Shown piece by piece: positions 9,431-34,757 of a stretch of 37,921 nt of DNA (position 1 is its first letter; each line of letters starts with the position of its first letter). The notes beneath the pieces are model-generated. The model did no database searches and was not told where the DNA came from. It saw only the letters and a list, made by a program, of their open reading frames with translations. This stretch comes from a virus (Duplodnaviria; Heunggongvirae; Uroviricota; Caudoviricetes): the IMG/VR virus record IMGVR_UViG_2734482770_000007; one strand, written 5' to 3'. Position numbers and translations under genes: made by a program.

Positions 9431-9460
9431 GAAACGTTGCCCCCAAGAGGATTCATTCTG

Positions 9461-9631
9461 ATGGGGGACTATTTTGGGCAACGAGTGAAACGAGGCGTTA
9501 GGTGGACGGCCATTTTGATAAGTGATCGTCCGCTTTTTGTTCTGAGTTCAAGCGATGGATTTAACACACTGGTTGAAGCAGAAGTATCTAAGTTCAATTT
9601 ATATTATTTGAAGGGCACTGGTCTGATGTAG
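9461..9631 (+). CDS. Hypothetical small protein in hotspot
   Basis: 56-aa ORF from ATG 9461 with AAGAGGA Shine-Dalgarno; track lists a longer version from 9437 (non-ATG start). Confidence 0.3.
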   Translation: MGDYFGQRVKRGVRWTAILISDRPLFVLSSSDGFNTLVEAEVSKFNLYYLKGTGLM

Positions 9632-9717
9632 TACGATTTTTGCCGGAGATGGCATGTTCTATATTGATCTCATCCATATAATGATTGGTATTATTAGCTT
9701 AGTTTAAAGAGGATTGA

Positions 9718-11295
9718 ATGGATATCAACTATGTTGTTTCAAAAATGGGGTTCGTAGATGATCTTATTAATGCAGGTTCATTTGATTCTGCCTATAAAAA
9801 TGTAAAGGATATTCTTAACGGTATCGATGAGATAAATACAATCAAAGAAAATAGAATAATTATATTATCTAATTTGGCCGGAAATCTTATTGATATCGGA
9901 AGTTTTAGTAATGTAAAAAATATAGCGGAGGAAGGCTTAAATATCTTTATAAACAATAAAAATGAATTTCTGACTATAATGAAAGAATCCTTATATTACT
10001 ATAACTTGGCAAATGGAATGAGCGCAGTTCTTGATTTTAATCCTAATGACAATGCAGATATTGATAGTTTCATTAAGCTGAATGATGTAAAAAATAATTA
10101 CTGGAAAGCGTTTAAACTTTCACAAGAAGATGGATGGGTGCCCCCTGATTTAATAGTTAATCTAGCTAATGTATTAAAAAAACAATATCGTATATCTGAA
10201 TCAATGGATTATTATGAACAAGCAATATCTATTGATAACTCAATTCCTCAGGCGTGGGTAAACAGATCTGAGGCATTAGAATTGCTTAATGAATTATCTA
10301 CAACATATACATATAAAATGATTAAAGAAGTTATTCGAGGTTATGAGTGTGCAATAAAGTCAGGGAAATGTTTTCCTTCATGGAAGGTTGCTCTTCAAAG
10401 AAAAATAAAGTACAACGAAAGTATATTGAGTGAATCATGTGTATATGGCATAGAGGATATAAGTACAGATGAAAGGCTCACGCAGGAGGAGTATGATACT
10501 TTATCAAACTACCAGAGGTTTTGTATAGATAATAATCTAATGTTGTCTGATCATTCGCTATATTGCAATTGTTATGCGTCATCTAAAGATAATATAACTA
10601 TTGCTACCACCGAGGAAGGTGTGTTTGGTGATTTTATAGTGCCAATGGAAATGGTGTTAAATAGACTTAAAGCTGAGTATTCCTTAGCACGAAAAATGTT
10701 TTTTGAATATAAGGTTGATAGTGAGTTTTTTGATGAGGATTCGGAGGTATGTTATTCTGAATTGTATAATGGAGAAATATTGTATGAAAATGTTGAGAAG
10801 TTAAGGGTTGCATTTAGAGCTTGCTTTGGTATCTTGGATAAAATAGCAGTTGCTCTGTGTCAATTATTTGATTTAAAACCAGATAGAGGACATATATACT
10901 TTCATAACTTCTGGCGGATTAGTGATGAAAAAAGAAAGCTTAAAATAAACAAAATAAATAATAAAGGATTGCTGGGTTTGTTTAGTATTGCTATGGATTT
11001 GAATGATAAAAATGGTGAGCTTGCTTTTTTTAAAGAATGGAGGAATGATTTAGAACATAAACTGTTAGTTATTCACGAGAAAGACATGTTAGTTGATTTA
11101 TATAATTCTTATGGGTTTTTTGATGAGGTGAGGTTTATTGAGAAAGAAAAGTTTGAGAAACAGCTCTTACAACTCATGAAAATTGTGAGATCAGCCGTTA
11201 TTCTTTTTGTGTTTACCATACGTATAGAGGGGAAAAAAAGTATTCCTAAAGATATGTTGACCATTAAAAATACCATCGAGAGAAAAGTATTGTAG
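9718..11295 (+). CDS. Cargo protein of unknown function; TPR-like N-terminal region, C-terminal HEPN-like Rx4H motif
   Basis: 525-aa ORF, strongly AT-rich by eye; AAGAGGA-like SD (AAAGAGGATTGAATG); helical repeat-like segment YYEQAISIDNSIPQAWVNRSEALELL; C-terminal EWRNDLEHK fits HEPN R-x4-H; followed by hairpin tcatcg-agc-cgatga plus T-run. Confidence 0.7.
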   Translation: MDINYVVSKMGFVDDLINAGSFDSAYKNVKDILNGIDEINTIKENRIIILSNLAGNLIDIGSFSNVKNIAEEGLNIFINNKNEFLTIMKESLYYYNLANGMSAVLDFNPNDNADIDSFIKLNDVKNNYWKAFKLSQEDGWVPPDLIVNLANVLKKQYRISESMDYYEQAISIDNSIPQAWVNRSEALELLNELSTTYTYKMIKEVIRGYECAIKSGKCFPSWKVALQRKIKYNESILSESCVYGIEDISTDERLTQEEYDTLSNYQRFCIDNNLMLSDHSLYCNCYASSKDNITIATTEEGVFGDFIVPMEMVLNRLKAEYSLARKMFFEYKVDSEFFDEDSEVCYSELYNGEILYENVEKLRVAFRACFGILDKIAVALCQLFDLKPDRGHIYFHNFWRISDEKRKLKINKINNKGLLGLFSIAMDLNDKNGELAFFKEWRNDLEHKLLVIHEKDMLVDLYNSYGFFDEVRFIEKEKFEKQLLQLMKIVRSAVILFVFTIRIEGKKSIPKDMLTIKNTIERKVL

Positions 11296-11617
11296 TATAT
11301 TTTCATCGAGCGATGAAACGGTCTGTTTTTCTTTATAGTTTTGTCATAAAAAAGAGATTTCCTGCTTAAAATTTGGCTATTACAGAGCAACTATGTATGT
11401 TCCTCGCTCACAGTAGAGCTTCATCTTTGTAAGTCTGTATGTTTCGTTTTTCAAGTGGTCATTCAGATACGGACTTTCACTTCTCTTAGACAGTGCATGA
11501 CTATGCTGCATGAAATCGCATGATCGTTTAAGGATCGTTTTTGCTAAGGCTCGCCAGAACTAGCGGGCTTTTACGTAGAACATGCAGGTGCATGAAAACC
11601 ACTACATAAAGCGGGCA

Positions 11618-11636
11618 GGCGTGGCGGGGATACGAG
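11618..11636 (+). other. Candidate cos (cohesive end) core
   Basis: GGCGTGGCGGGGATACGAG followed by GCGCGC resembles my recollection of the P2 19-nt cohesive end GGCGAGGCGGGGAAAGCAC; located in a 546-bp noncoding region adjacent to the portal-terminase operon, oriented as in P2. Confidence 0.3.
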
Positions 11637-11841
11637 CGCGCACTCTGGGGTAAAATGGTCAAAATCCACCGCAATTTACTGGCTCGGGAACGTAGTTAGT
11701 TTTGTAGGTATAAACGGCTCTCACGTTAGATAGGCATGCAGGATGTGTTAAATCGTTGTGATGAAGTTAACGGTGACTGAGACAGTTTAGGTCTAAGATA
11801 TAACTTCTGGGTTAGTTAAAAATTGGAATAGTAAGACATTT

Positions 11842-12138
11842 ATGAAAACTACTTATAGCTATGATTTTCAATATATGCGCAAAGGTCAGGATCGCCCTGA
11901 TGATGATGGAGAGGTTGTAGGGTGTAATTCAGAAGACAACTCGCTTTTGATGCTTCCAAATGTGGGAGACTACGTAACAATTACGAATAAGGGTGGGCGT
12001 GCTCAATTTGATGGGCGGGTGAAAACAAGGCTTTTCAATTACCTACGCATTGCTGATGGTCATGTTCATTGCTCCATTTGCATTGTAGTTGAGGAAGTTG
12101 ATATGGACTCCGTATGGGGGGCACTAATTAAAGAATAA
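11842..12138 (+). CDS. Hypothetical protein between cos and portal gene
   Basis: 98-aa ORF, no recognisable motifs; P2 has no gene at this position; followed by hairpin terminator. Confidence 0.5.
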   Translation: MKTTYSYDFQYMRKGQDRPDDDGEVVGCNSEDNSLLMLPNVGDYVTITNKGGRAQFDGRVKTRLFNYLRIADGHVHCSICIVVEEVDMDSVWGALIKE

Positions 12139-12144
12139 TAGAAT

Positions 12145-12160
12145 GCCTGCAAATGCAGGC
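12145..12160. terminator. Bidirectional hairpin between convergent 98-aa ORF and portal gene
   Basis: gcctgc-aaat-gcaggc perfect stem; T-rich on plus side (gctttaattt). Confidence 0.45.
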
Positions 12161-12168
12161 GCTTTAAT

Positions 12169-13209
12169 TTACTCAGAAATATCTAAGTTGTAAGATTCAA
12201 AGCAAATCACTTTTTCACCTAGCCAGTTGTTCAGCTCTTGCAGCCGCTTTTGCAGTGGCATCAGTTCATTGCGGACAAACACTCGACTAGCCTTCTCCAC
12301 ATCCCCAAACCCCCCGACATTATTAGGCATTATCCCCATCATTTGTGGCGGCACACGATGCGCCGCCATCATGTCGTCCCGGCTCACGTTCTTGATATTC
12401 AGGAACTCATCCTTCGCCGCCACTTCTGACAACGGGATAATCTGAAGCCCGTCCTTTTTACCGTTAGGCGAGTACATAAACAGGTTACGGAAGTTACCAG
12501 GACCTTTGGCGCTTTTCATCGCATTGCGGAGGTTGTTCACATCCTCCTGGTTCTGCGCAGCATCGGTCATGTACATGATGAAGCCTGCATGACTGCCGTT
12601 AATGTAATACTTGCGGCGGAACAGCGTGGCGGACTCGTTGAGCAGAGCTGACGGAATGGCAGAAAGATAACCGGGCAGGCCGTAGATCTCCTGGTTAATG
12701 TCCGGTTCCATTAGATGAAAAATGCTGCCTTTCGTGAACTGATACGGCTGGGTTGTCATACCGTATTGCACAAACCAGTAGGTATCCAGGTCTAACCCGC
12801 GTCGGGTGTATTTTGCCAGTGCAGGCTCAAGGGCGATAACTTCACCGAAGCGGTTCGTGCGTTTCTCCAGGTAGGCGTTACCAAAAACCAGATAGTCCTG
12901 CACAAAACGCGAAAAAGCCTGCTGGCTGAGCAGCGGGTGAGGGATGTAGGTGCTGGTCAGAATGTTGCACTTCACTGCAATCGGTGAGCTGTGATGCACG
13001 GCGGCGCGGAAGGTTCGCGCCAGTCCGTCGAAACTCACAGGCGGCTCATACCAACGATCCATCTGTACGCATTCCACATAGTCCAGCAGTTCGCGGCGGT
13101 CCAGAACAGGAACGGGATCACCGAAGCTGAATGCTTCGGCTGAAGTCTGGCTTTTATGCTGGATCTGTTTCGTCGACGCAGCGCGGTTCTTCTTACTCTT
13201 TCCCATCAA
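12169..13209 (-). CDS. Q: Portal protein (P2 gpQ family)
   Basis: 346 aa (P2 Q about 344 aa); leftward, upstream partner of terminase in a Q-P operon divergent from O-N-M-L. Confidence 0.9.
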   Translation of the reverse strand: MMGKSKKNRAASTKQIQHKSQTSAEAFSFGDPVPVLDRRELLDYVECVQMDRWYEPPVSFDGLARTFRAAVHHSSPIAVKCNILTSTYIPHPLLSQQAFSRFVQDYLVFGNAYLEKRTNRFGEVIALEPALAKYTRRGLDLDTYWFVQYGMTTQPYQFTKGSIFHLMEPDINQEIYGLPGYLSAIPSALLNESATLFRRKYYINGSHAGFIMYMTDAAQNQEDVNNLRNAMKSAKGPGNFRNLFMYSPNGKKDGLQIIPLSEVAAKDEFLNIKNVSRDDMMAAHRVPPQMMGIMPNNVGGFGDVEKASRVFVRNELMPLQKRLQELNNWLGEKVICFESYNLDISE

Positions 13210-20483: not shown

Positions 20484-20922
20484 ACTGCAGAAAGTGGACG
20501 ACTGGCTGAGTGCCTTGCTGGCGAATCTGGAGCCAGCCGCAAGAAGCCGCATGATGCGCCAGCTGGCGCAGGAACTGCGCCGGATACAGCAGCAGAACAT
20601 CAGGATGCAACGCAATCCAGATGGCAGTAGTTATGAACCGCGACGGGTAACAGCACGCAGTAAAAAGGGGCGCATCAAACGTCAGATGTTTGCAAAGCTG
20701 CGAACCACAAAATACCTGAAAACTGCCGCCAGCGCCGATTCTGCCAGCGTGCAGTTTGAAGGCAAGGTACAGCGCATTGCCCGTGTTCACCATTACGGCT
20801 TGCGTGATCGCGTCAGCCGTAAGGGGCCACAGATACGTTATGCTAAACGTAGGTTACTTGGAATTTATGATACTGATTTTGATATTATAGAAGAGATAAT
20901 CATAAATTTTTTGATTCGTTAG
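20476..20922 (+). CDS. S: Tail completion protein (P2 gpS family)
   Basis: 148 aa; synteny and size; 3' end overlaps convergent cargo gene. Confidence 0.75.
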   Translation: MAELQKVDDWLSALLANLEPAARSRMMRQLAQELRRIQQQNIRMQRNPDGSSYEPRRVTARSKKGRIKRQMFAKLRTTKYLKTAASADSASVQFEGKVQRIARVHHYGLRDRVSRKGPQIRYAKRRLLGIYDTDFDIIEEIIINFLIR

Positions 20923-22081
20923 ATTCATTAATTTTCTTAAAGTATGAGTCTATTTTTTCAATTAATAAATTGATGCTTTTTATAAATTCTTTTGTTTCTT
21001 TCTCTGTTGGTTCATGTGATGTATGAGCTATTTTGTCACGTAATTCTTTCCTGTTTTTATTTGCATGTTGCCACTCAAGTGGCGCAATTTCGGGTACAGA
21101 GATGTTAAAGAGTTGTTTGAATAGTTTTTTACATCTATCATCGAACTTCCAGTTTTTATTTAATGTTTCTTTTGTCTGGCATTCATTGATACCATTGCGA
21201 TGAAAGGCATTAATAATTTTTCTGAGAATATAGCTTTCAAGGCCTGCTGATGCTTCAATTACGGCTGATCTAAATGCACCTTTATGAACAAGATTGTCTG
21301 CTCTAATCAATAATAGTTCAGGATGTTCATTGAATTCATTTGACATTAAACGTTTTTTGAAATTATCAATGAGACTTTCATCGTGTTTATACCAGCTTTC
21401 TCTCATTAATGGGGTGATTACTCCAACTAAAGGAATTGCACTTATCTTAATACCATCGCAATAATGCTCTTGTAACACTCCGTTGGTAAATCCTGAGCCA
21501 ACTTGATAAAGAGATATCTCGTCTGCAAATTGATCTTTAAAGGCAACTCTATACTGTTTTATAAAGTGGTTTATTATTCCGATACATTCCTCTGATCTTT
21601 TAGGTGGAAATATCTCTCTAGCAGTTTTTATTTTTCTCTCTAACTCTATTTTTTTATCTATATCTTGCTGGCTCATTTTGGATAGGAGCATCTCAGCATC
21701 TTCCACAGATGGGAAGTTATCTTCTTTCCTTATTTGGTTTCTTATAGAGTTGATTAGTTCTTCATGTGATATTTCTAAAAGGTCAAAACATTCCCAATAG
21801 TTGGCGAGAGAAATAATAGTCCGGCATTTCATTATCCCTCTTTCATTTGTGTGATGTGGTAGTAGTTGTTCTCTGGTACCGATTAATAGGGTTTGAGGGA
21901 ATAAGCTTGCATCTTTAAATAGTGCATAGTAATCGTTGTGAACTGTTAAGCGTAAATGGTTATTTTCATATAGAAAATCATAATCACCATCTGGAATATT
22001 GAGGACATAAGGCAACTCGACCAAGTAACGTGCAGCAAAGATCATTTCAGTCATCTCCATATGAGAATTCAATTGTGCCAA
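20900..22081 (-). CDS. Cargo protein of unknown function in the S-V (orf30-equivalent) locus; C-terminal HEPN-like Rx4H motif
   Basis: 393-aa ORF, strongly AT-rich by eye, antisense to flanking late genes; C-terminal KELRDKIAHTSHEP fits R-x4-H; no other recognisable motif. Confidence 0.7.
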   Translation of the reverse strand: MAQLNSHMEMTEMIFAARYLVELPYVLNIPDGDYDFLYENNHLRLTVHNDYYALFKDASLFPQTLLIGTREQLLPHHTNERGIMKCRTIISLANYWECFDLLEISHEELINSIRNQIRKEDNFPSVEDAEMLLSKMSQQDIDKKIELERKIKTAREIFPPKRSEECIGIINHFIKQYRVAFKDQFADEISLYQVGSGFTNGVLQEHYCDGIKISAIPLVGVITPLMRESWYKHDESLIDNFKKRLMSNEFNEHPELLLIRADNLVHKGAFRSAVIEASAGLESYILRKIINAFHRNGINECQTKETLNKNWKFDDRCKKLFKQLFNISVPEIAPLEWQHANKNRKELRDKIAHTSHEPTEKETKEFIKSINLLIEKIDSYFKKINESNESKNL

Positions 22082-22091
22082 AAATCATACA
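22074..22091. promoter_or_regulatory. Late-promoter activator box TGT-N12-ACA upstream of V
   Basis: TGTGCCAAAAATCATACA read directly; overlaps the start codon region of the divergent cargo gene. Confidence 0.5.
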
Positions 22092-22136
22092 CTGCCACAA
22101 CGATGAAAAAAAATCTTGCTTTGCAACTATAGAAGG

Positions 22137-22715
22137 ATGAATGCACAACTAACCGAAATCATGCGCCTTATCACCAACCTGATCCGCACTGGTGTAGTCA
22201 CCGAAGTGGACAGGGAAAACTGGCTTTGCCGGGTGAAAACAGGCGACTTAGAAACCAACTGGATCAGCTGGCTGACCCTGCGTGCCGGGAATGCCCGGAC
22301 ATGGTGGCGACCATCGGAAGGTGAGCAGGTGGTGCTGCTGAGTCTGGGCGGCAATCTGGAGACCGCCTTTGCGCTGCCCGCTGTCTATTCGAATCAGTTC
22401 GCACCACCGTCGACGTCGGCGGACGCCTGCGTGACAGAACATCCTGACGGTGGCTGGTTTGAATACGAACCCGCCACCGGGCGCTGGTATGTCAGGGGCA
22501 TCAAATCCATGGTTATTGAGGCTGCCGACAATATCACCCTGAAAACCAGTGAGTTTGTGCTGGAGGCTGACCGCACGCGTATTAATAGTGAAGTAGTGAT
22601 CAATGGCGGCGTTACCCAGGGCGGCGGTGCAATGAGTTCTAACGGAATTGTGGTTGATGCACATCAGCATACTGGCGTCCTGAAAGGCGGCGACACAACC
22701 GGAGGCCCGGTATGA
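22137..22715 (+). CDS. V: Baseplate spike/assembly protein (P2 gpV family)
   Basis: Start at ATG 22137 after AGAAGG; 192 aa; first gene of V-W-J-I-H block. Confidence 0.8.
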   Translation: MNAQLTEIMRLITNLIRTGVVTEVDRENWLCRVKTGDLETNWISWLTLRAGNARTWWRPSEGEQVVLLSLGGNLETAFALPAVYSNQFAPPSTSADACVTEHPDGGWFEYEPATGRWYVRGIKSMVIEAADNITLKTSEFVLEADRTRINSEVVINGGVTQGGGAMSSNGIVVDAHQHTGVLKGGDTTGGPV

Positions 22716-24564: not shown

Positions 24565-26045
24565 GCACAAAATTTTATACCCTGCTGACGGATATTGGCG
24601 CGGCGAAACTTGCCAGCGCCGCCGCGCTCGGTGTGCCGCTAAAAATTACCCATATGGCGGTGGGCGATGGCGGCGGAGCATTGCCGACGCCGGACGCAAA
24701 GCAGACGGCACTGGTAAATGAGAAACGCCGGGCTGCGCTGAATATGCTCTATATCGACCCGCAGAACAGCAGCCAGATTATTGCTGAACAGGTGATCCCT
24801 GAAAATGAGGGTGGTTGGTGGATACGTGAAGTGGGTCTGTTTGATGAGTCCGGGGCATTGATTGCCGTAGGCAACTGCCCGGAAAGCTATAAGCCGCAAC
24901 TGGCTGAAGGCAGCGGGCGCACCCAGACCGTGCGCATGGTGCTGATTACCAGCAGCACGGACAATATCACCCTGAAAATCGACCCTGCCGTCGTGCTGGC
25001 AACCCGCAAGTATGTGGATGACAAGGTACTGGAGCTGAAGGTGTTCGTGGATGATAAGATGGCAAAACATCTTGCCGCACCGGACCCGCATTCACAGTAT
25101 GCATCTAAAGAAAGCCCGACATTGACCGGAACACCCAAAGCGCCAACGCCAGCGGAGGGGAATAACACCACGCAGATTGCGACCACCGCGTTTGTTCAGG
25201 CCGCTATTACTGCTCTGATTAACGGTGCGCCAGCCACGCTGGACACACTGAAAGAAATTGCCGCAGCCATTAACAATGACCCGAAATTCAGTACCACCAT
25301 TAACAATGCGCTGGCACTAAAAGCACCGCTGTCGAGTCCGGCACTCACCGGAACGCCAACAGCACCTACTGCGGCACAGTCGGTCAACAATACACAGATT
25401 GCCACTACAGCTTTTGTGAAATCAGCGATTGCAGCAATGGTGGGTTCTGCACCTGCGGCACTGGATACACTGAACGAACTGGCGGCGGCGCTGGGGAATG
25501 ACCCGAACTTTGCCACGACAATGCTTAATGCACTGGCAGGTAAACAACCGCTGGACAATACGCTGACTAATTTGAGTGGAAAGGATGTAGCTGGTCTTCT
25601 CACATACCTTCAATTGGGAGAAGCGGCAAAACGGGATGTCGGAACCGGTAATAATCAACTCCCGGACATGTCCGCATTTGGTATGTCGCGAAACGGACAA
25701 ACTACCTGGGATATTCTCCCAAATGGTATGATTCGACAGGCTGGCACTGTGACACTGACACCAGTTGGTAACTTCAACTCGCAGGTGCTTGGTGGGGTGA
25801 CGTACTACACCCATTACTACAGGGTTAATTTCCCCAGACAATTCCCAAATGCACAAATAGCAACGCTGGCAACACTAGCGAGTTACAGCTATTCGACCCA
25901 GGCAACAATGGCCGGAAAATCACTGGCAACGCATCGCGATACTGATTCTGGCACTGACGTATCAAGAACGCGATTCACTGTGGCGTATACGACACCCAAT
26001 CTCGGCGAAACACCGACACTGCATTTTGAAGCAATAGGATACTAA
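24561..26045 (+). CDS. H: Tail fibre protein (P2 gpH family), C-terminal domain within invertible segment
   Basis: 494 aa; internal tandem fibre repeats; hix-like crossover site at codons 346-354. Confidence 0.85.
   Translation: MSTKFYTLLTDIGAAKLASAAALGVPLKITHMAVGDGGGALPTPDAKQTALVNEKRRAALNMLYIDPQNSSQIIAEQVIPENEGGWWIREVGLFDESGALIAVGNCPESYKPQLAEGSGRTQTVRMVLITSSTDNITLKIDPAVVLATRKYVDDKVLELKVFVDDKMAKHLAAPDPHSQYASKESPTLTGTPKAPTPAEGNNTTQIATTAFVQAAITALINGAPATLDTLKEIAAAINNDPKFSTTINNALALKAPLSSPALTGTPTAPTAAQSVNNTQIATTAFVKSAIAAMVGSAPAALDTLNELAAALGNDPNFATTMLNALAGKQPLDNTLTNLSGKDVAGLLTYLQLGEAAKRDVGTGNNQLPDMSAFGMSRNGQTTWDILPNGMIRQAGTVTLTPVGNFNSQVLGGVTYYTHYYRVNFPRQFPNAQIATLATLASYSYSTQATMAGKSLATHRDTDSGTDVSRTRFTVAYTTPNLGETPTLHFEAIGY
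25113..25556 (+). repeat. Tandem in-frame repeat (two copies of about 74 codons) within tail fibre gene
   Basis: Protein segments SPTLTGTPKAP...NNTTQIATTAFVQAAI...LDTLKEIAAAINNDPKF and SPALTGTPTAP...NNTQIATTAFVKSAI...LDTLNELAAALGNDPNF are clearly paralogous. Confidence 0.55.
25597..25622. promoter_or_regulatory. hix/gix-like 26-bp invertase crossover site (left), core TT
   Basis: TTCTCACATACC TT CAATTGGGAGAA; imperfect dyad resembling Hin hixR; inverted partner at 27131-27156 (19 of 26 identical in inverted orientation). Confidence 0.55.
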
Positions 26046-26047
26046 AT

Positions 26048-26281
26048 ATGGAGAATATCTATTTCAGCCCAACGACCGTTGGTTTTTATGTTTCTGAACA
26101 AGAGCGACCTGATGATGCGGTTGAAGTCTCGCCAGAGGTGGAGGCATTTTTGAGGGAGTGTGTTATCTGGGGAGCGGATACATTTAACGTAGAGCGAGAT
26201 GCAGCAACGGTGACATATCCAACAGAACTGCTTGAATATGTCACCACCTACAACGCCCCCGTTAAATATCCTGCGGATTGA
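26048..26281 (+). CDS. Small protein immediately downstream of H, possible fibre chaperone for current orientation
   Basis: 77-aa ORF starting 2 nt after H stop (TAA-NN-ATG), same arrangement as the inverted cassette; no recognisable tfa motif. Confidence 0.4.
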   Translation: MENIYFSPTTVGFYVSEQERPDDAVEVSPEVEAFLRECVIWGADTFNVERDAATVTYPTELLEYVTTYNAPVKYPAD

Positions 26282-26672
26282 CAGGCCATACGGGTTTGGC
26301 TGTATCAACGCGCATCAGCAAGACCCGGTATTTTTTCCATTCAGATAACGCGGCGGTTTCTTCTGCCGTCGCGATTTCCGCATCAAAAGCATCCTGTCTC
26401 CAGACTATTTCCTTATCAGCCATAGAACGCAATACCGTTCTTTTCTGTTCAGCCTGAATAATCTGTTGTTCAGCGGAGAGTGGCGGGATATCAATCCACT
26501 CAGGATTACCATTTTTATCAGCCCCCAGCGTTTTGCCTTGTGGCGCTACGCCTGTGTAAATTGCCATTGTTTCATCATCAACATCAACGCCATTTTCAGG
26601 CCATGAACCGGCGCTGATATATACCTCTTTTAGTGCTTTCGGATAGAAAGAGCCTTTATAAAATTTATTCAT
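26262..26672 (-). CDS. Tail fibre assembly protein (Tfa), paired with the alternative fibre cassette
   Basis: C-terminal [32 protein letters not shown] matches conserved Tfa C-terminus (lambda Tfa [27 protein letters not shown]); start taken at ATG 26672, 2 nt after cassette stop (track start 26702). Confidence 0.7.
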   Translation of the reverse strand: [136 protein letters not shown]

Positions 26673-26674
26673 TC

Positions 26675-27184
26675 TTAATACCCCAGCGCGATAAAACAAC
26701 AATCTTCGGTGCCCTCTCCGGATGGCGACCAGTTCTGAATACTGATATGCGTTCTGCTGGCAATACGCACATTCATCGCGGCATTGTAGCCAGATGTTCC
26801 ACGGTTTCCGGTCGCAAATAAGCCTGCATAGGGAAAAGCAAATGGTAAGGCATATCCAGCATCAGCTCCCTTTTGTGTTGCCACCGTTCCCCACTGCAAC
26901 ATAAGTTTCACCGGGTTTCCTGTCGTCGCAATGCATGGAATGTAGATGTAGCCATTCCCTGACATCATTGACCTGAAGCTATCTAAATCCAGTAACTTCG
27001 AGGCATTATCTGCTCCAACATCTCGTGTTGCGGCGGTCCCTAACTGGAGCGTATTTCGGAAGGCTGATACATCAGAAATATCAGCTCCATTAGCCGATTT
27101 CTGCATAGCTCCGGAGGCTTTATTTATCGTTTCTCCCAAACCAACGTTTATGAAAATGCAGAGATAACGGCTAACTGGCATCAT
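26675..27184 (-). CDS. Alternative tail-fibre C-terminal cassette (promoterless in this orientation)
   Basis: Minus-strand ORF with LQLGTAATRDVG paralogous to H YLQLGEAAKRDVG; contains hix-like site near its 5' end, in the same codon phase as the site in H, so inversion would fuse it in frame to H codons 1-354. Confidence 0.6.
   Translation of the reverse strand: MMPVSRYLCIFINVGLGETINKASGAMQKSANGADISDVSAFRNTLQLGTAATRDVGADNASKLLDLDSFRSMMSGNGYIYIPCIATTGNPVKLMLQWGTVATQKGADAGYALPFAFPYAGLFATGNRGTSGYNAAMNVRIASRTHISIQNWSPSGEGTEDCCFIALGY
27131..27156. promoter_or_regulatory. hix/gix-like 26-bp invertase crossover site (right), core AA
   Basis: TTCTCCCAAACC AA CGTTTATGAAAA; about 20 of 26 match to Hin hixL as recalled (TTCTTGAAAACCAAGGTTTTTGATAA). 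Confidence 0.6.
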
Positions 27185-27205: not shown

Positions 27206-27777
27206 ATGATCATGCTTATTGGCTATGTACGCGTGTCAACAAATGACCAGAACACCGATTTGCAACGCAATGCACTGAACTGTGCGGGATGTGAGCGGAT
27301 TTTTGAGGATAAAATCAGTGGCACCAAGTCCGACAGACCGGGGCTGAAAAAGCTGCTCAGGACACTATCGGCAGGAGACACGCTGGTTGTCTGGAAGCTG
27401 GACAGACTGGGCGCAGTATGCGGCATCTTGTTACGCTGATAGAAGCGCTGCGCCAGCGTGGCGTGAATTTCCGAAGCCTGACTGACAGTATTGATACCAG
27501 CACCCCAATGGGCCGTTTCTTTTTTCATGTCATGGGTGCCCTGGCTGAAATGGAACGCGAACTGATAGTTGAACGTACCAGGGCGGGGCTGGCTGCAGCT
27601 CGTGCTAAAGGCAGAGTAGGTGGACGCCGTCCTAAGTTGACCAGCGAACAGTGGTCACAGATTGGGCGTTTACTCGAGGCCGGAGAATCAAGACAGCGTA
27701 TTGCACTGATTTTTGATGTAGGCGTTTCTACCATTTATCGAAAATTTCCGGCAAATAAGAACAATAAATCTCCCTGA
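27206..27777 (+). pseudogene. Serine DNA invertase (Hin/Gin/Cin/Pin family) disrupted by a 1-nt frameshift
   Basis: Two ORFs (27206..27439, 27418..27777) together align with Hin: MLIGYVRVSTNDQN (catalytic Ser), VVWKLDRLG then frame change to MRHLVTLIEAL...SLTDSIDTS...GRFFFHVMGALAEMERELIVERT...VSTIYR (HTH). Intact frame would need one extra base near 27412. Confidence 0.75.
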
Positions 27778-27919: not shown

Positions 27920-29092
27920 ATGGCTCAGGATTACCACCACGGGGTGCGCGTTGTTGAAGTCAACGAAGGCACCCGATCCATTACCACGGTGAGCACCGCC
28001 ATCGTGGGTATGGTCTGCACGGGCGATGATGCCGATGCAAAAATGTTTCCTCTTAATAAACCCGTGCTGATCACTGATGTGCTGACTGCCAGCGGTAAAG
28101 CGGGTGAGTCAGGCACGCTGGCTCGTTCGCTGGATGCCATCGCTGACCAGGCAAAACCCGTGACCGTTGTTGTGCGTGTGCCGCAGGGTGAAACGGAAGA
28201 AGAAACCACGACCAATATCATCGGAGCAGTGACCGCTGAAGGTAAAAAAACAGGCATGAAAGCCCTGTTATCTGCCCAGTCACAGCTCGGCGTTAAACCG
28301 CGCATTCTCGGCGTGCCAGGTCACGACACGAAGGCGGTAGCTACTGAGTTGCTGAGCGTGGCGCAAAGCCTGCGTGGATTTGCTTACCTGTCAGCGTATG
28401 GTTGCAAGACAGTGCAGGAAGCAATCACTTACCGTGAAAACTTCAGTCAGCGTGAAGGAATGCTGATCTGGCCCGACTTTACTGGCTGGGACACGGTGCT
28501 GAATGCCGAAGCAACGGCTTATGCCACCGCCCGTGCGCTTGGTCTGCGCGCCAAAATTGACGAGCAGACCGGATGGCACAAAAGCCTGTCCAACGTGGGC
28601 GTTAACGGTGTCACCGGAATTTCTGCTGATGTGTTCTGGGATCTGCAGGACCCGGCAACCGATGCGGGACTGCTGAACCAGAACGACGTCACCACCCTTA
28701 TCCGCAAAGACGGTTTTCGCTTCTGGGGTTCCCGCTGCCTGAGTGATGACCCGCTCTTTGCCTTCGAAAACTACACCCGCACGGCGCAGGTGCTGACGGA
28801 CACGATGGCAGAAGCGCACATGTGGGCGGTGGATAAACCGCTGAATCCGTCGCTGGCCCGCGACATTATCGAGGGTATCCGCGCCAAAATGCGCAGCCTG
28901 GTCAGTCAGGGCTATCTCATTGGTGGTGATTGCTGGCTGGATGAGTCGGTGAACGACAAAGACACGCTGAAAGCCGGAAAACTCACCATCGACTACGACT
29001 ACACGCCAGTGCCGCCACTTGAAAACCTGATGCTGCGTCAGCGCATCACCGATCAGTACCTGGTGAATTTCTCCAGCCAGGTCAGCGCGTAA
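27920..29092 (+). CDS. FI: Tail sheath protein (P2 gpFI family)
   Basis: 390 aa (P2 FI about 396); followed by tube gene. Confidence 0.9.
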
Positions 29093-29101
29093 GGGGACAA
29101 C

Positions 29102-29617
29102 ATGGCTTTACCACGCAAATTAAAACACCTGAACCTGTTTAATGACGGGAACAACTGGCAGGGGATCGTTGAGTCGCTGACGCTGCCGAAATTTACCCGC
29201 AAATATGAGAAGTATCGCGGCGGCGGAATGCCGGGTGCAGTGGATGTGGATCTGGGGCTGGATGACGGCGCACTGGATACGGAATTTTCCATTGGTGGTA
29301 CTGAACTGCTGCTGTTTAAGCAGATGGGCAAAGCCACGGTGGATGGTATCCAGTTGCGCTTTACCGGCTCTATCCAGCGTGACGATACCGGGGAAGTGCA
29401 GGCCGTGGAGCTTGTGGTGCGTGGACGTCACAAAGAAGTGGATTCCGGCGAGTGGAAGACGGGCGAAAGCAACACCACCAAAGTGACCAGTACCAACAGC
29501 TACGCGAAGCTGACTATAAATGGTGAGGTGCTCTATGAAGTGGACCTTATCAACATGGTGGAAATTGTGGACGGTGTGGACCTGATGGAAGCGCACCGCA
29601 ACGCCCTCGGCCTCTGA
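29102..29617 (+). CDS. FII: Tail tube protein (P2 gpFII family)
   Basis: 171 aa (P2 FII about 172). Confidence 0.9.
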   Translation: MALPRKLKHLNLFNDGNNWQGIVESLTLPKFTRKYEKYRGGGMPGAVDVDLGLDDGALDTEFSIGGTELLLFKQMGKATVDGIQLRFTGSIQRDDTGEVQAVELVVRGRHKEVDSGEWKTGESNTTKVTSTNSYAKLTINGEVLYEVDLINMVEIVDGVDLMEAHRNALGL

Positions 29618-29671
29618 TGTATCTGAACGGCGCGGGATACCGCGCCAGAACCCAATTTACAGGACAGCAAA

Positions 29672-29974
29672 ATGAGCGATAAGCAGACTGAAAAGACTAT
29701 TCAACTGGATACCCCCATCAAGCGCGGTAAAACAGAAATCACCGAAATTGTGCTGCGTAAACCGCAGTCCGGTGCGCTGCGCGGTACACGCCTGCAGGCC
29801 ATTATGGATATGGATGTGAACGCGATGATGACCGTGATCCCCCGCATCTCCAGTCCGGCACTGACTGCACAGGAAATTGCAGAGATGGACCCGGCAGATC
29901 TCACTGCCATGTCGGTTGAGGTTGTCACTTTTTTGTTGAAGAAGTCGGTGCTTGCCGGTTTACCGACAGCCTGA
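29672..29974 (+). CDS. E: Tail assembly chaperone E
   Basis: 100-aa ORF between tube and tape-measure genes; contains slippery T TTT TTG near 3' end. Confidence 0.8.
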   Translation: MSDKQTEKTIQLDTPIKRGKTEITEIVLRKPQSGALRGTRLQAIMDMDVNAMMTVIPRISSPALTAQEIAEMDPADLTAMSVEVVTFLLKKSVLAGLPTA

Positions 29975-30108
29975 CGGTTGACGATCTGGTGGCTGATATC
30001 GCCACCATCTTTCACTGGCCGCCATCCGTTACTGACGTTATGCCGCTGACCGAAGTGCTGGAATGGCGGTATAAAGCGATTCAGAGAAGCGGGGCCAACG
30101 ATGAGTGA
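29672..30108 (+). CDS. Tail assembly chaperone E+E' (-1 programmed frameshift product)
   Basis: Slippery heptamer T-TTT-TTG at 29929-29935 in zero-frame phasing; -1 frame is open for 58 codons (VEEVGACRFTD...AIQRSGANDE) and stops at 30106-30108, overlapping the T start codon. Confidence 0.6.
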
Positions 30109-33100
30109 TAATAACCTGCGCCTGCAGGTCATTCTTAATGCGGTTGACAAACTCACCCGCCCATTCCGTGCTGCACAGGCCAGTTCGAAAGAGCTGGCTG
30201 GCGCAATTCAGAATACCCGAAACAGCCTCAAAGAACTGAATAAGCAGGCTGGCAGAATTGATGAATTTCGCAAGACGCGCTCGCAACTAGCCATAACAGC
30301 CAACAACCTGAACGCAGCCCGCGAAGAGGCGGCAAAACTCGCCACACAATTTGCTGCCACTAACAGGCCAACCGCCGCGCAGGCAAAGTTATTCAGTCAG
30401 GCCAAAACACGAGTACAGGAACTTCAGCAGACCTATAACGGCTTGTTGGGGGCGGTCCAGAGACAACGTCAGGCACTTAAAGAATCAGGGATTGATACCA
30501 GACAACTCAGTAGTGCCCAGCGAGAACTTAAGAAAAATGCCGAAGAAACTCGTCAGGCACTGGAGGGCCAGCAAAAAGCACTTAAACGTCTGGGTGAACA
30601 ACAGGCACGGATGAACGCTGCCAGAGAACAATACTCAAGACGGCTTGAAGTGCGCGATCGCATCGCAGGAGCCGGAGCCACCACCACGGCTGCAGGGCTG
30701 GCAATGGGCGCGCCAGTGATGGCGGCGGTAAAAAGCTATACCAGCATGGAAGATGCCATGAAAGGTGTGGCAAAGCAGGTCAATGGTCTGCGTGACGATA
30801 ATGGCAACCGCACTGCGCGTTTTTACGAAATGCAGGATGCCATCAAAGCTGCCAGTGAACAGCTGCCAATGGAAAACGGTGCTGTGGACTTCGCCGCACT
30901 GGTTGAAGGTGGTGCGCGCATGAATGTGGCAAACCCTGACGACAGCTGGGAGGACCAGAAACGTGACCTGCTGGCCTTCGCCAGTACGGCAGCAAAGGCG
31001 GCAACAGCCTTTGAGCTGCCAGCGGATGAACTGTCAGAAAGTCTGGGGAAAATCGCCCAGCTCTACAAAATACCAACCCGCAATATTGAACAGCTCGGTG
31101 ATGCGCTGAACTATCTGGATGATAACGCTATGTCGAAAGGGGCAGACATCATTGATGTCATGCAACGCCTGGGCGGTGTGGCTGATCGTCTGGATTATCG
31201 TAAAGCGGCGGCGCTGGGTTCCACCTTCCTGACACTGGGGGCTGCGCCGGAGGTCGCTGCCAGTGCTGCCAACGCGATGGTGCGTGAATTGTCCATTGCG
31301 ACCATGCAAAGCAAGAGTTTCTTTGAAGGAATGAATCTGCTGAAACTCAATCCTGAAGTGATTGAAAAGCAGATGACGAAGGATGCGATGGGAACTATCC
31401 AGCGCGTACTGGAGAAGGTGAACGCACTGCCGCAGGATAAGCGCCTGTCTGCCATGACCATGTTGTTTGGTAAAGAGTTTGGCGATGATGCGGCGAAACT
31501 GGCAAACAACCTGCCGGAACTGCAGCGCCAGCTAAAACTGACAGCGGGCAATGATGCGCTCGGTTCGATGCAGAAAGAATCCGACATTAACAAGGACTCA
31601 CTTTCTGCGCAGTGGTTGCTGGTCAAAACCGGAGCGCAGAACACCTTCAGCAGCCTGGGCGAAACGCTGCGCCAGCCGCTGATGGATATTCTGTACACGG
31701 TGAAAAGCATCACGGGGGCGTTGCGTCGCTGGGTGGAAGCTAACCCTGAACTGACGGGCACACTGATGAAAGTAGCCGCGGTTGTGGCTGCTGTTACTGT
31801 GGGCCTCGGCACCCTGGCTGTGGTGTTGGCTGCTGTGCTGGGGCCGCTGGCAGTCATCCGTCTGGGATTCTCTGTGCTGGGTATCAAAACGTTACCTTCC
31901 GTTACGGCAGCAGTAACGCGAACAAGCAGCGCGTTGTCCTGGTTGGCTGGCGCACCACTTGCACTGCTGCGACGCGGGCTTGCTTCATCGGGCAACGCCG
32001 CAGGTTTACTTACTGCGCCGTTGTCGTCTTTGCGCCGCACGGCATCACTGACGGGAAATGTCCTGAAAACTGTAGCAGGTGCGCCGGTTGCACTTTTGCG
32101 GTCTGGATTATCCGGTTTACGTGCTGTTGCTGTGATGTTTATGAATCCTCTGGCGGTACTGCGCGGTGGACTGGCCTCCGCAGGCACGGTGCTGCGAGTA
32201 CTGGCATCTGGTCCACTGGCGATGCTGCGCGTTGCCCTGTATGCCGTATCTGGTCTGTTAGGTGCTCTGCTCAGTCCGATAGGTCTTGTGGTTACTGCAC
32301 TGGCGGGCGTGGCGCTGGTTGTCTGGAAATACTGGCAACCCATCACCGCATTTCTTGGTGGCGTAGTGGAAGGATTCAAAGCGGCGGCAGGTCCCGTCAG
32401 TGCAGCATTCGAACCGCTTAAGCCCGTGTTCCAGTGGATTGGCGACAAAGTACAGGCGCTGTGGGGCTGGTTTACTGATCTGCTGACGCCCGTTAAGTCG
32501 ACCTCTGCCGAACTGCAGAGTGCAGCGGCAATGGGGCGACGATTCGGGGAGGCACTGGCGGAAGGGCTGAATATGGTCATGCATCCGCTGGACTCCCTGA
32601 AATCCGGCGTTTCCTGGTTGCTGGAGAAACTCGGCATTGTCAGTAAAGAGGCTGCAAAGGCGAAACTGCCGGAAAGAGTGACGCGTCAGCAACCTGCGAC
32701 GGTGAATGCAGACGGTAAAGTGATGATGCCACCGGGTGGTTTTCCGTCATGGGGATATGGCTTTGCGGGGATGTATGACAGCGGCGGCTATATCCCGCGC
32801 GGGCAGTTTGGCATCGTCGGTGAAAACGGGCCGGAAATTGTTAACGGCCCGGCAAATGTGACCAGCCGGAGAAATACAGCTGCACTGGCTGCCGTTGTTG
32901 CCGGAATGATGGGCGTTGCTGCCGCGCCTGCAGAGCTTCCACCATTGCATCCTTTGGCACTTCCCGCGAAAGGCGGCGAAGCGATGGTGAGTCGTGCAGC
33001 CACTGTACCGCCCGTTCACCGGATTGAGGCACCGACGCAGATCATCATTCAGACGCAGCCAGGACAAAGTGCGCAGGATATTGCGCGGGAGGTGGCACGC

Positions 33101-33178
33101 CAGCTTGATGAACGTGAACGCAGGCTGAAGGCAAAAGCCAGGAGTAACTACAGCGATCAGGGGGGATACGACGCATGA
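30101..33178 (+). CDS. T: Tail tape measure protein (P2 gpT family)
   Basis: 1025 aa; N-terminal coiled coil, central Ala/Leu/Gly-rich hydrophobic repeats; position after E/E'. Confidence 0.85.
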   Translation: MSDNNLRLQVILNAVDKLTRPFRAAQASSKELAGAIQNTRNSLKELNKQAGRIDEFRKTRSQLAITANNLNAAREEAAKLATQFAATNRPTAAQAKLFSQAKTRVQELQQTYNGLLGAVQRQRQALKESGIDTRQLSSAQRELKKNAEETRQALEGQQKALKRLGEQQARMNAAREQYSRRLEVRDRIAGAGATTTAAGLAMGAPVMAAVKSYTSMEDAMKGVAKQVNGLRDDNGNRTARFYEMQDAIKAASEQLPMENGAVDFAALVEGGARMNVANPDDSWEDQKRDLLAFASTAAKAATAFELPADELSESLGKIAQLYKIPTRNIEQLGDALNYLDDNAMSKGADIIDVMQRLGGVADRLDYRKAAALGSTFLTLGAAPEVAASAANAMVRELSIATMQSKSFFEGMNLLKLNPEVIEKQMTKDAMGTIQRVLEKVNALPQDKRLSAMTMLFGKEFGDDAAKLANNLPELQRQLKLTAGNDALGSMQKESDINKDSLSAQWLLVKTGAQNTFSSLGETLRQPLMDILYTVKSITGALRRWVEANPELTGTLMKVAAVVAAVTVGLGTLAVVLAAVLGPLAVIRLGFSVLGIKTLPSVTAAVTRTSSALSWLAGAPLALLRRGLASSGNAAGLLTAPLSSLRRTASLTGNVLKTVAGAPVALLRSGLSGLRAVAVMFMNPLAVLRGGLASAGTVLRVLASGPLAMLRVALYAVSGLLGALLSPIGLVVTALAGVALVVWKYWQPITAFLGGVVEGFKAAAGPVSAAFEPLKPVFQWIGDKVQALWGWFTDLLTPVKSTSAELQSAAAMGRRFGEALAEGLNMVMHPLDSLKSGVSWLLEKLGIVSKEAAKAKLPERVTRQQPATVNADGKVMMPPGGFPSWGYGFAGMYDSGGYIPRGQFGIVGENGPEIVNGPANVTSRRNTAALAAVVAGMMGVAAAPAELPPLHPLALPAKGGEAMVSRAATVPPVHRIEAPTQIIIQTQPGQSAQDIAREVARQLDERERRLKAKARSNYSDQGGYDA

Positions 33179-33660
33179 TGATGGTGCTGGGATTGTACGT
33201 GTTTATGCTGCGCACCGTTCCGTATCAGGAACTGCAGTATCAACGCAGCTGGCGACATGCGGAAAACAGCCGGGTAAACCGTCGTCCGTCCACGCAATTT
33301 CTGGGACCGGACAACGACATGCTGACGCTTTCTGGTGTTCTTATGCCGGAGATAACGGGCGGCAGGCTGTCGTTGCTGGCTCTGGAGCAGATGGCAGAAC
33401 AGGGAAAAGCATGGCCCCTGATTGAAGGCAGCGGCACGATTTACGGCATGTATGTGATTGAGGGACTGAATCAGACTAAAACGGAGTTTTTCCGCGATGG
33501 TATGCCGCGCCGGATTGAGTTTACCCTGTCGCTCAAACGGGTGGATGAATCCATGTCCGATATGTTCGGTGATCTCAGTGCGCAGCTGAATAATTTGCAG
33601 GATACGGCAACGTCTGCCTTAAGCGATATCAGTAAAACGGTGGGAGGGCTGCTGTCGTGA
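33175..33660 (+). CDS. U: Tail protein U
   Basis: 161 aa (P2 U about 159); overlaps T stop. Confidence 0.8.
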   Translation: MMMVLGLYVFMLRTVPYQELQYQRSWRHAENSRVNRRPSTQFLGPDNDMLTLSGVLMPEITGGRLSLLALEQMAEQGKAWPLIEGSGTIYGMYVIEGLNQTKTEFFRDGMPRRIEFTLSLKRVDESMSDMFGDLSAQLNNLQDTATSALSDISKTVGGLLS

Positions 33661-34757
33661 ATTTCAGCTCTGAACTGCTTAACAAAGGCAACAAAACTCC
33701 CGCATTCAGCATCAGTATTGAGGGGAAGGATATCACCACTGTGCTGGACAAACGCCTGATGGGGCTTACGCTGACGGATAACCGGGGCTTTGAAGCGGAC
33801 CAGCTTGATCTGGAGCTGGACGACGCCGACGGAAAAATCGTGCTGCCGCGCCGTGGTGCGGTCATTACGCTGGCGCTGGGCTGGAAGGGGCAGCCGCTTT
33901 TCCCGAAAGGGGCATTCACGGTGGACGAGATTGAACACACTGGCGCACCGGACCGCCTGACTATCCGGGCGCGAAGTGCTGATTTTCGGGAAACGCTGAA
34001 TACCCGCCGTGAAAAATCGTGGCATAACACCACCATCGGGGAAGTGGTGAAGGAAATAGCCGCGCGGCACAAGCTGAAGATGGCACTGGATAAAGACCTG
34101 TCGGATAAGCCCGTGGAGCATATAGACCAGACTAATGAGAGTGACGGCAGTTTTTTGATGCGGCTGGCGCGACAGTACGGTGCCATCGCGTCGGTGAAAA
34201 ATGGCAATCTGTTATTCATCCGGCAGGGGCAGGGCAAAAGCGCCACTGGTAAACCACTGCCGGTGATCACTATCACACGGAAGGACGGCGACAGTCACCG
34301 CTTTACCCTGGCAGATCGCGGAGCCTACACGGGCGTAATTGCCAGCTGGTTGCATACCCGCGAACCCGCGAAGAAAGAAAGCACCACGGTGAAGCGTAAG
34401 CGCAGGACTAAGAAGCAGAAGAAAGAGCCGGAAGCGAAGCAGGGCGATTACCTGGTGGGGACGGATGAAAACGTGCTGGTACTTAATCGCACTTATGCCA
34501 ACCGGAGCAACGCCGAACGAGCGGCGAAAATGCAGTGGGAACGCCTGCAACGCGGTGTTGCGTCATTCTCGCTACAACTGGCGGAAGGTCGGGCAGATCT
34601 CTACACGGATATGCCTGTGAAGGTCAGTGGCTTTAAACAGCCGATAGATGATGCGGAATGGACCATTACCACCCTGACACATACTGTCAGCCCGGATAAT
34701 GGTTTTACGACCAGTCTGGAGCTTGAAGTGAGGATTGATGATTTCGAAATGGAATGA
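33657..34757 (+). CDS. D: Tail protein D (late control/tail assembly)
   Basis: 366 aa (P2 D about 387); overlaps U stop. Confidence 0.85.
   Translation: MNFSSELLNKGNKTPAFSISIEGKDITTVLDKRLMGLTLTDNRGFEADQLDLELDDADGKIVLPRRGAVITLALGWKGQPLFPKGAFTVDEIEHTGAPDRLTIRARSADFRETLNTRREKSWHNTTIGEVVKEIAARHKLKMALDKDLSDKPVEHIDQTNESDGSFLMRLARQYGAIASVKNGNLLFIRQGQGKSATGKPLPVITITRKDGDSHRFTLADRGAYTGVIASWLHTREPAKKESTTVKRKRRTKKQKKEPEAKQGDYLVGTDENVLVLNRTYANRSNAERAAKMQWERLQRGVASFSLQLAEGRADLYTDMPVKVSGFKQPIDDAEWTITTLTHTVSPDNGFTTSLELEVRIDDFEME

Follow-up and report, generated by a model that had tools for sequence, protein, structure and literature searches.

The window, that is, the whole stretch of 37,921 nucleotides that was analysed, carries on its plus strand a block of tail genes in the order FI-FII-E-E'-T-U-D, and in this block the E/E' pair is flanked by FII, the tube gene, and T, the tape-measure gene. 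The features considered in this work are the following:

27920-29092, plus strand: sheath gene FI (Pfam Phage_sheath_1 and Phage_sheath_1C)
29102-29617, plus strand: tube gene FII (Pfam Phage_tube, 6e-60)
29672-29974, plus strand: gene E, predicted tail assembly chaperone, the 100-aa zero-frame product (open reading frame; PF10109; phrog_103)
29920-29974, plus strand: shift window, the sole stretch where a -1 shift joins E to E' (from the last -1 stop to the E stop)
29929-29935, plus strand: slip site, heptamer T TTT TTG, with X XXY YYZ phasing relative to the E frame (phase computed)
29935-30108, plus strand: E', the -1 extension, with 57 sense codons and TGA (PF06528; phrog_1756 and phrog_6416; the only frame open in the relatives)
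29989-30108, plus strand: 39-aa open reading frame from GTG, annotated as free-standing in public records and more plausibly the 3' portion of E'
30101-33178, plus strand: tape-measure gene T, 1025 aa (open reading frame; Pfam PF10145 PhageMin_Tail)
33175-33660, plus strand: gene U (Pfam Phage_P2_GpU, 7.5e-45)
33657-34757, plus strand: gene D (Pfam Phage_GPD, 3.7e-27), which completes an operon of the FETUD type

The heptamer TTTTTTG is located at 29929-29935 on the plus strand, and begins at the last base of the ACT codon (29927-29929) in the E reading frame. Read in the zero frame the site is ACT TTT TTG, so that T TTT TTG stands in the X XXY YYZ phase in E. The zero-frame stop of E is the TGA at 29972-29974, 39 nt 3' of the heptamer. 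In the -1 frame there is a TGA at 29917-29919, after which the frame is open from 29920 to the TGA at 30106-30108. The shift window delimited by these stops measures 55 nt, and T TTT TTG is the single in-phase X XXY YYZ heptamer inside it. We modelled the junction as a simultaneous slippage, in which TTT and TTG are decoded and the G is then read again. After the slip, the first codon in the -1 frame is GTT (29935-29937), and the frame comprises 57 sense codons in total, or 58 if the TGA is counted. The predicted E+E' product has 145 aa: residues 1-88 come from 29672-29935 and the following 57 residues from 29935-30105. At the junction it reads ...VVTFL followed by VEEVG..., with ISSPALTAQEIAEMDPADLTAMSVEVVTFLVEEVGACR as the junction peptide. 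The earlier note on this DNA had placed T-TTT-TTG in zero-frame phasing near the end of E and had counted 58 open codons in the -1 frame, and both statements agree with the computed phase and with the end at 30108. It had also claimed that the -1 frame ends exactly at the start codon of the tape-measure gene, and this has to be corrected: the stop of E' overlaps the ATG of T (30101-30103) by 8 nt, ATGAGTGA, at 30101-30108.

The same 8-nt overlap between E' and T is present in the P2-type genome, 186, ENT90, SopEPhi and the Klebsiella relative, and in RSA1 and Carl1 the overlap is ATGA. The T start of the window has its own Shine-Dalgarno-like GGGG, with a pairing energy to the anti-Shine-Dalgarno sequence of -7.0 kcal/mol. 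If there is any termination-reinitiation coupling to T, it would be limited to a minority of the ribosomes, because only those that have shifted frame would stop at 30101-30108. On the other side of the pair, in the gap that separates the stop of FII from the start of E, there is a GC-rich hairpin, GGCGCGG-GAUA-CCGCGCC, at 29629-29646 on the plus strand (z -2.9 for the 58-nt fold), which is not followed by a T tract. In phage 186 a partial terminator (tI) is annotated at the position of this hairpin, and the P2-type genome has a similar hairpin between FII and E (z about -3). The hairpin may attenuate the expression of E-T-U-D relative to that of the sheath and tube genes.

TTTTTTG occurs 22 times on both strands of the window, against 12 +/- 3.3 expected in shuffles. 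Furthermore, a similar frameshift geometry was found at 9 of the 84 in-phase heptamers of the mechanically called open reading frames of the window; at these nine the -1 frame runs well past the zero-frame stop, mostly by way of spurious reading frames or of adjacent genes. The heptamer and its geometry inside the window are by themselves weak evidence and are not statistically remarkable. Since this geometry does not discriminate, the case rests on homology and on the comparison with relatives.

The E protein matches the Pfam family PF10109 Phage_TAC_7 (E 1e-18, 67.5 bits for a cutoff of 25, profile positions 1-78 of 79), which is described in Pfam as 'tail assembly chaperone proteins, E, or 41 or 14'. 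The -1 extension matches PF06528 Phage_P2_GpE over its full profile, positions 1-37 (E 4e-19, 68.2 bits for a cutoff of 23). In PHROGs, E belongs to phrog_103 (tail, 4e-44) and the extension matches phrog_1756 and phrog_6416, so that both parts fall in tail families; the alignment to phrog_1756 begins at residue 3 of the extension. When the window fusion was compared by BLASTP with the P2-type E+E', the two aligned over 139 aa with 49% identity and 0 gaps through the junction (E 3e-51). When the P2-type locus was reconstructed in the same way, it gave an E of 91 aa and an E+E' of 142 aa, equal to the sizes published for P2 (PMC3091744). NCBIfam gave zero matches for E, E' or the fusion, and no PDB chain was matched by sequence at E <= 1.

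To extend the comparison, the fusion was searched with tblastn against 50,697 phage records. Matches were obtained in 425 of them, and 387 cover at least 80% of the query. Among the tblastn rows listed, 57 of 60 are joined from two pieces; that the two pieces lie in different frames was confirmed for the loci that were read individually. These loci come from 19 relatives: 17 phages (16 named Peduoviridae genera), a Vibrio phage without a family assignment, and an element from Zymomonas that was submitted as plasmid pZM36. The closest named relative is Escherichia phage Cartapus (Elveevirus). In the relatives, E was placed by its annotated coordinates. In all 20 sequences, counting the window, E is in frame 0 and E' in an open -1 frame; lack of conservation of this frame was the outcome that the earlier note had set against its own reading. 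Close to the 3' end of E, at the homologous position, all 20 also have an X XXY YYZ heptamer that is in phase. The shift window is 37 nt long in the P2-type locus and in that of 186, with one in-phase heptamer each. The fused proteins align across all relatives, with a core DDL-x-AD-IA-x-IFHWPPS...L-x-E-L-x-x-WR-x-x-A-x-x-RSG. The extension is longer in Xuanwuvirus P88_4B11 and in Kp4848-1, where it has 70-71 residues.

The heptamer is T TTT TTG in 13 of the 20 sequences (the window, Cartapus, SopEPhi, the Klebsiella Kapieceevirus, ENT90, the P2-type genome, 186, EtG, phiCTX, RSA1, FLC5, Carl1 and PhiBP82.2), among which there are phages of GC-rich hosts. T TTT TTT is found in three (Smp131, Zymomonas pZM36 and the Vibrio phage), and there are four single variants: T TTT TTC in skin clone 2F_1, A AAT TTT in Xuanwuvirus P88_4B11, G GGA AAG in PHL101 and C CCT TTC in Kp4848-1. 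In the GC-rich relatives (GC3 of E 0.83-0.90) the T run of the slip site, which is T7 in Smp131, is unique in each 1.6-kb locus. This indicates selection at the nucleotide level, in addition to that at the protein level.

The nature of the site raises the question of which machinery slips. A homopolymer, T6 in the window and T7 in Smp131, the Zymomonas element and the Vibrio phage, could make the RNA polymerase stutter and add one extra U, which would give the junction ...TFFVEE..., and transcriptional slippage is a known alternative route to fusions of this kind (PMC5009743). However, productive runs in bacteria have about 9 A or T (PMC5009743), so that six is short. Besides, the strict X XXY YYZ phase with respect to E is always kept, which a polymerase does not require, and the sites of PHL101, Xuanwuvirus and Kp4848-1 lack a long homopolymer and yet obey the rule for tandem tRNA slippage. 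The event in P2 is also described as a translational frameshift (PMC3091744, PMC3931495). Because of the G GGA AAG, A AAT TTT and C CCT TTC sites, we favour slippage of tRNAs over slippage of the RNA polymerase, and consider the latter very improbable.

The comparison of substitutions was used to evaluate how the -1 frame evolves. When six sequences were translated in three frames, the -1 frame alone was free of stops in all six. In the part that is only E', the substitutions with respect to the Klebsiella relative are distributed 3/3/12 by codon position, and those with respect to SopEPhi 6/2/9; over the whole extension, the Klebsiella relative shows 13 synonymous and 7 non-synonymous codon changes. 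Judged by these patterns, the -1 frame evolves as a coding sequence.

Another alternative is that E' is an independent small gene. Both PGAP and phage annotators treat it as a CDS of its own, encoding a 39-aa 'GpE family phage tail protein' that would start at GTG 29989 and need no frameshift, and many relatives have a codon capable of starting translation (GTG or ATG) at the homologous position. The pairing to the anti-Shine-Dalgarno sequence upstream of GTG 29989 is nevertheless weak, -3.0 kcal/mol as a computational proxy vs -7.0 kcal/mol at the T start, and it is +0.3 kcal/mol in SopEPhi, 186 and EtG. The homologous codon cannot initiate in RSA1 (GCC), the Vibrio phage (TAC) or Kp4848-1 (GTT). 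In addition, the 18 codons between the heptamer and GTG 29989 stay open in all the relatives and are partly conserved as protein (F-V-A/E-E...S-L-T/S-V-D-D-L), and the phrog_1756 alignment mentioned before starts at extension residue 3. The E' of P2, moreover, is described as having no ribosome-binding site and as being made as an extension of E (PMC3931495). Taken together, these observations make an independent start at GTG 29989 most unlikely, and argue that the 39-aa frame is the 3' part of a longer extension reached from E.

A third possibility is that the two frames are the product of an error or of decay, that is, of a homopolymer sequencing error or of a pseudogenising indel in what was one true open reading frame. 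The neighbourhood offers some grounds for the suspicion: a nearby invertase gene of the window lacks one nucleotide in a run of G, and many genes of the closest public record are flagged as frameshifted. Against it, the identical T6G length and the two-frame layout recur in independently sequenced genomes of many genera, obtained with many technologies; the 100-aa E ending at 29974 exists as the exact protein on at least 1000 contigs; and none of the relatives examined has E and E' in one frame. We therefore regard an artefact as extremely improbable, even more so than the two previous alternatives.

The invertase gene deserves a description of its own. It is of the Gin/Hin type, lies at 27206-27777 on the plus strand and is split into the reading frames 27206-27439 and 27418-27777, with its Pfam Resolvase domain broken at profile positions 76/79. 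In comparison with the intact gene of Cartapus, one G is missing near 27409-27411 (GGGG to GGG), so the split gene is either a pseudogene or the result of a homopolymer sequencing error. Adjoining it, two imperfect 34-nt inverted repeats (25597-25630 and 27123-27156, 71% complementary) flank about 1.5 kb of tail-fibre or fibre-assembly reading frames. This is probably an invertible host-range segment like the G segment of Mu or the C segment of P1, and it may be locked in one orientation because the invertase is broken.

Regarding the closest public record, CP019275.1, it was deposited as 'plasmid p13P477T-2' and carries ssrA, smpB, bamE, recN and an NAD/polyphosphate kinase gene. It looks like a mis-circularised chromosomal prophage region next to ssrA, and not a plasmid. 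The window and CP019275.1 are mosaic relatives, with blocks that are 94-99.6% identical and unrelated stretches at about 9440-12248, 20816-22137, 25645-27131 and 30213-30643; the last of these breaks is located a short way into the 5' region of the tape-measure gene. Within the window, there are no tRNA or tmRNA genes.

To look for elements that could stimulate the frameshift, both flanks of the heptamer were analysed. The 100 nt located 3' of the heptamer fold no better than shuffles (z -1.3), and RNAalifold found zero consensus pairs among 12 relatives. There is a local hairpin, GUCGGU-N12-ACCGAC, at 29944-29967 on the plus strand, 8 nt 3' of the heptamer, whose support is marginal, with z -1.5 to -2.1 in the three closest genomes; elsewhere z is about 0, and the hairpin is not conserved outside their clade. 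In the Klebsiella relative (870-893) it reads GUCGGC...GCCGAC, with the closing U-A pair replaced by C-G through changes on both sides; this comparison covers just three distinct sequences. On the 5' side, a Shine-Dalgarno-like GAGGU is found at 29918-29922, 6-7 nt from the heptamer, with an unremarkable pairing energy of -6.8 kcal/mol. The motif (G/A)AGGU is present in the enteric and in some beta-proteobacterial relatives, where it coincides with conserved Glu/Lys-Val codons, and it is missing in ENT90 (AAA GTG), Smp131, the Zymomonas element, the Vibrio phage and Xuanwuvirus. For its overlap with these codons and its absence from several lineages, the upstream motif was rejected as evidence of frameshifting.

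With no conserved 3' structure and no convincing 5' Shine-Dalgarno element, the site was not placed in the stimulator-dependent class of the dnaX or IS911 type. Since a stimulatory element was not detected at either flank, the efficiency of the frameshift would rest on the heptamer, in agreement with the reports on P2; P2 and its Burkholderia relatives are reported to be without stimulatory RNA structures (PMC3091744). It is conceivable, though rather unlikely, that in the clade formed by Elveevirus, Felsduovirus and Kapieceevirus the frameshift is tuned by GAGGU 29918-29922 and the hairpin 29944-29967, a condition that has not been described for P2.

In view of the above, the prophage is P2-like (Peduoviridae, Elveevirus-like), and the gene for its tail-assembly chaperone very probably undergoes programmed -1 ribosomal frameshifting. 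Most of the ribosomes would read E (29672-29974) to its stop and produce the 100-aa chaperone. In a minority of them, the tRNA-Phe on UUU in the P site and the tRNA-Leu on UUG in the A site would move back one base on U UUU UUG and pair again with UUU UUU, and reading would resume at GUU (29935), now in the -1 frame, and end at the UGA of 30106-30108. The product of the slip would be the 145-aa E+E', with residues 1-88 in common with E and a C-terminal domain of 57 residues belonging to the GpE family; E' would be translated solely as this C-terminal domain. By analogy with E/E+E' of P2 and G/GT of lambda, the shared N-terminal part would coat the product of T, the tape-measure protein, and the long form, which is less abundant, would couple the T complex to the polymerising tube, the ratio of E to E+E' being set by the frequency of frameshifting. 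According to the literature on P2 and lambda, the shift takes place there and both of its products are required. We infer from the sequence both that this prophage would express E+E' and that it would do so at a minor frequency, and the chaperone role is assigned here by analogy. Because of the 1-nt deletion in its invertase gene, it is possible that the prophage is defective, and in that case the slip site could be intact and not be used in this host. The reading as an E+E' tail chaperone that the earlier note had offered is upheld by the Pfam and PHROGs families, the synteny, the colinear fusion, the conservation in 20 of 20 sequences and the coding -1 frame.

Another aspect to mention is how the locus is represented in the databases. 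The segment is present in about 1000 of 5426 complete E. coli genomes. The exact E protein appears on at least 1000 public contigs, under the name 'phage tail assembly protein', and the 39-aa frame on about 1000. In CP019275.1, Cartapus and RefSeq E. coli genomes, E' is listed as the separate 39-aa 'GpE family phage tail protein', and in the records of PHL101, RSA1, ENT90, the Vibrio phage and 2F_1 it is wholly unannotated. The exact 145-aa fusion is absent from a public collection of about 15 billion proteins. In this way, a protein that is essential in P2 is systematically missing from the proteome databases on which mass spectrometry searches and homology studies rely. The value of the locus for discovery is little, as the P2 frameshift was demonstrated by experiment in 2002 and its conservation in P2-like phages has been pointed out repeatedly, and the gain is the practical annotation gap that it exposes. 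In addition, the heptamer variants (T6G, T7, T6C, A AAT TTT, G GGA AAG and C CCT TTC) constitute a natural series for the evolution of slip sites.

Among the known systems, the dnaX gene of E. coli shares with the window a tandem-slippage heptamer of the X XXY YYZ form (A AAA AAG) that is read by bacterial ribosomes. The difference is that dnaX has flanking stimulators, Shine-Dalgarno-like on the 5' side and a stem-loop on the 3' side, and reaches about 50% (PMC5009743), whereas none that is convincing was found in the window.

The lambda G/GT arrangement, which the earlier note had seen mirrored here, is indeed reproduced in the overlapping reading frames between the tube and tape-measure genes and in the canonical heptamer. 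The heptamer of lambda is G GGA AAG, unlike the T TTT TTG of the window. The G/GT tail assembly chaperones were reportedly characterised by Levin, Hendrix and Casjens in 1993 and by Xu, Hendrix and Duda in 2004, 2013 and 2014. The likeness, which is to the class of Xu et al. 2004, includes the -1 slip and the shared N-terminus. In lambda the long form is minor, at a ratio of 30:1, and the proteins chaperone the tape measure and recruit tube subunits (PMC5009743). Lambda differs in its non-contractile tail, and a sequence similarity was not detected: at E <= 0.01 only PF10109 and PF06528 were matched in Pfam, with no homology to gpG/gpT detected. The functional class is defined by arrangement and not by sequence, so that this result does not speak against membership in it.

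Within the P2-like phages, gene H of phage 186 (orf51/orf52) has the same arrangement and a homologous slip site, and its record notes that the product is 'probably produced by a translational frameshift'. SopEPhi, a relative with 88% identity, carries the label 'similar to gpE+E' of bacteriophage P2'. The joined E+E' CDS is already annotated in EtG, Carl1, FLC5 and Smp131, in contrast to the records of the lineage of the window. There are also differences in detail, since the E proteins of 186 and EtG have a longer N-terminus (111 aa) than that of the window, and the slip site of Smp131 is T7 instead of T6G.

As regards P2 itself, the likeness comprises T TTT TTG in the same phase, the position between FII and T, the ATGAGTGA overlap, the extension of 57 residues and the same Pfam families; the parallel drawn in the earlier note was thus borne out by the sequence comparison (49% identity over 139 aa, 0 gaps, E 3e-51). 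Christie, Temple, Bartlett and Goodwin (2002, J Bacteriol 184:6522) are said to have found that the P2 fusion is made at about 10%. PMC3091744 and PMC3931495 cite Christie et al. 2002 for the experimental establishment of the -1 frameshift in P2, and describe a -1 shift at TTTTTTG and an E' with no ribosome-binding site, kept among P2-like phages. The E' of P2 'extends 37 nt back into E' (PMC3931495), and the shift window computed for the P2-type locus is also of 37 nt. A literature search gave no new functional data on gpE. The published P2 proteins are of 91 aa for E and 142 aa for E+E' (PMC3091744), compared with 100 and 145 aa here; E is longer than that of P2 because its zero-frame stop lies 39 nt past the heptamer, against 21 nt in P2. 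About half of the residues differ, and the phage of the window belongs to another genus. All the defining features of a P2-type E/E+E' frameshift that can be tested in sequence are present at this locus, and on that basis the feature is taken to be the E/E+E' frameshift of P2, ordinary and already known.
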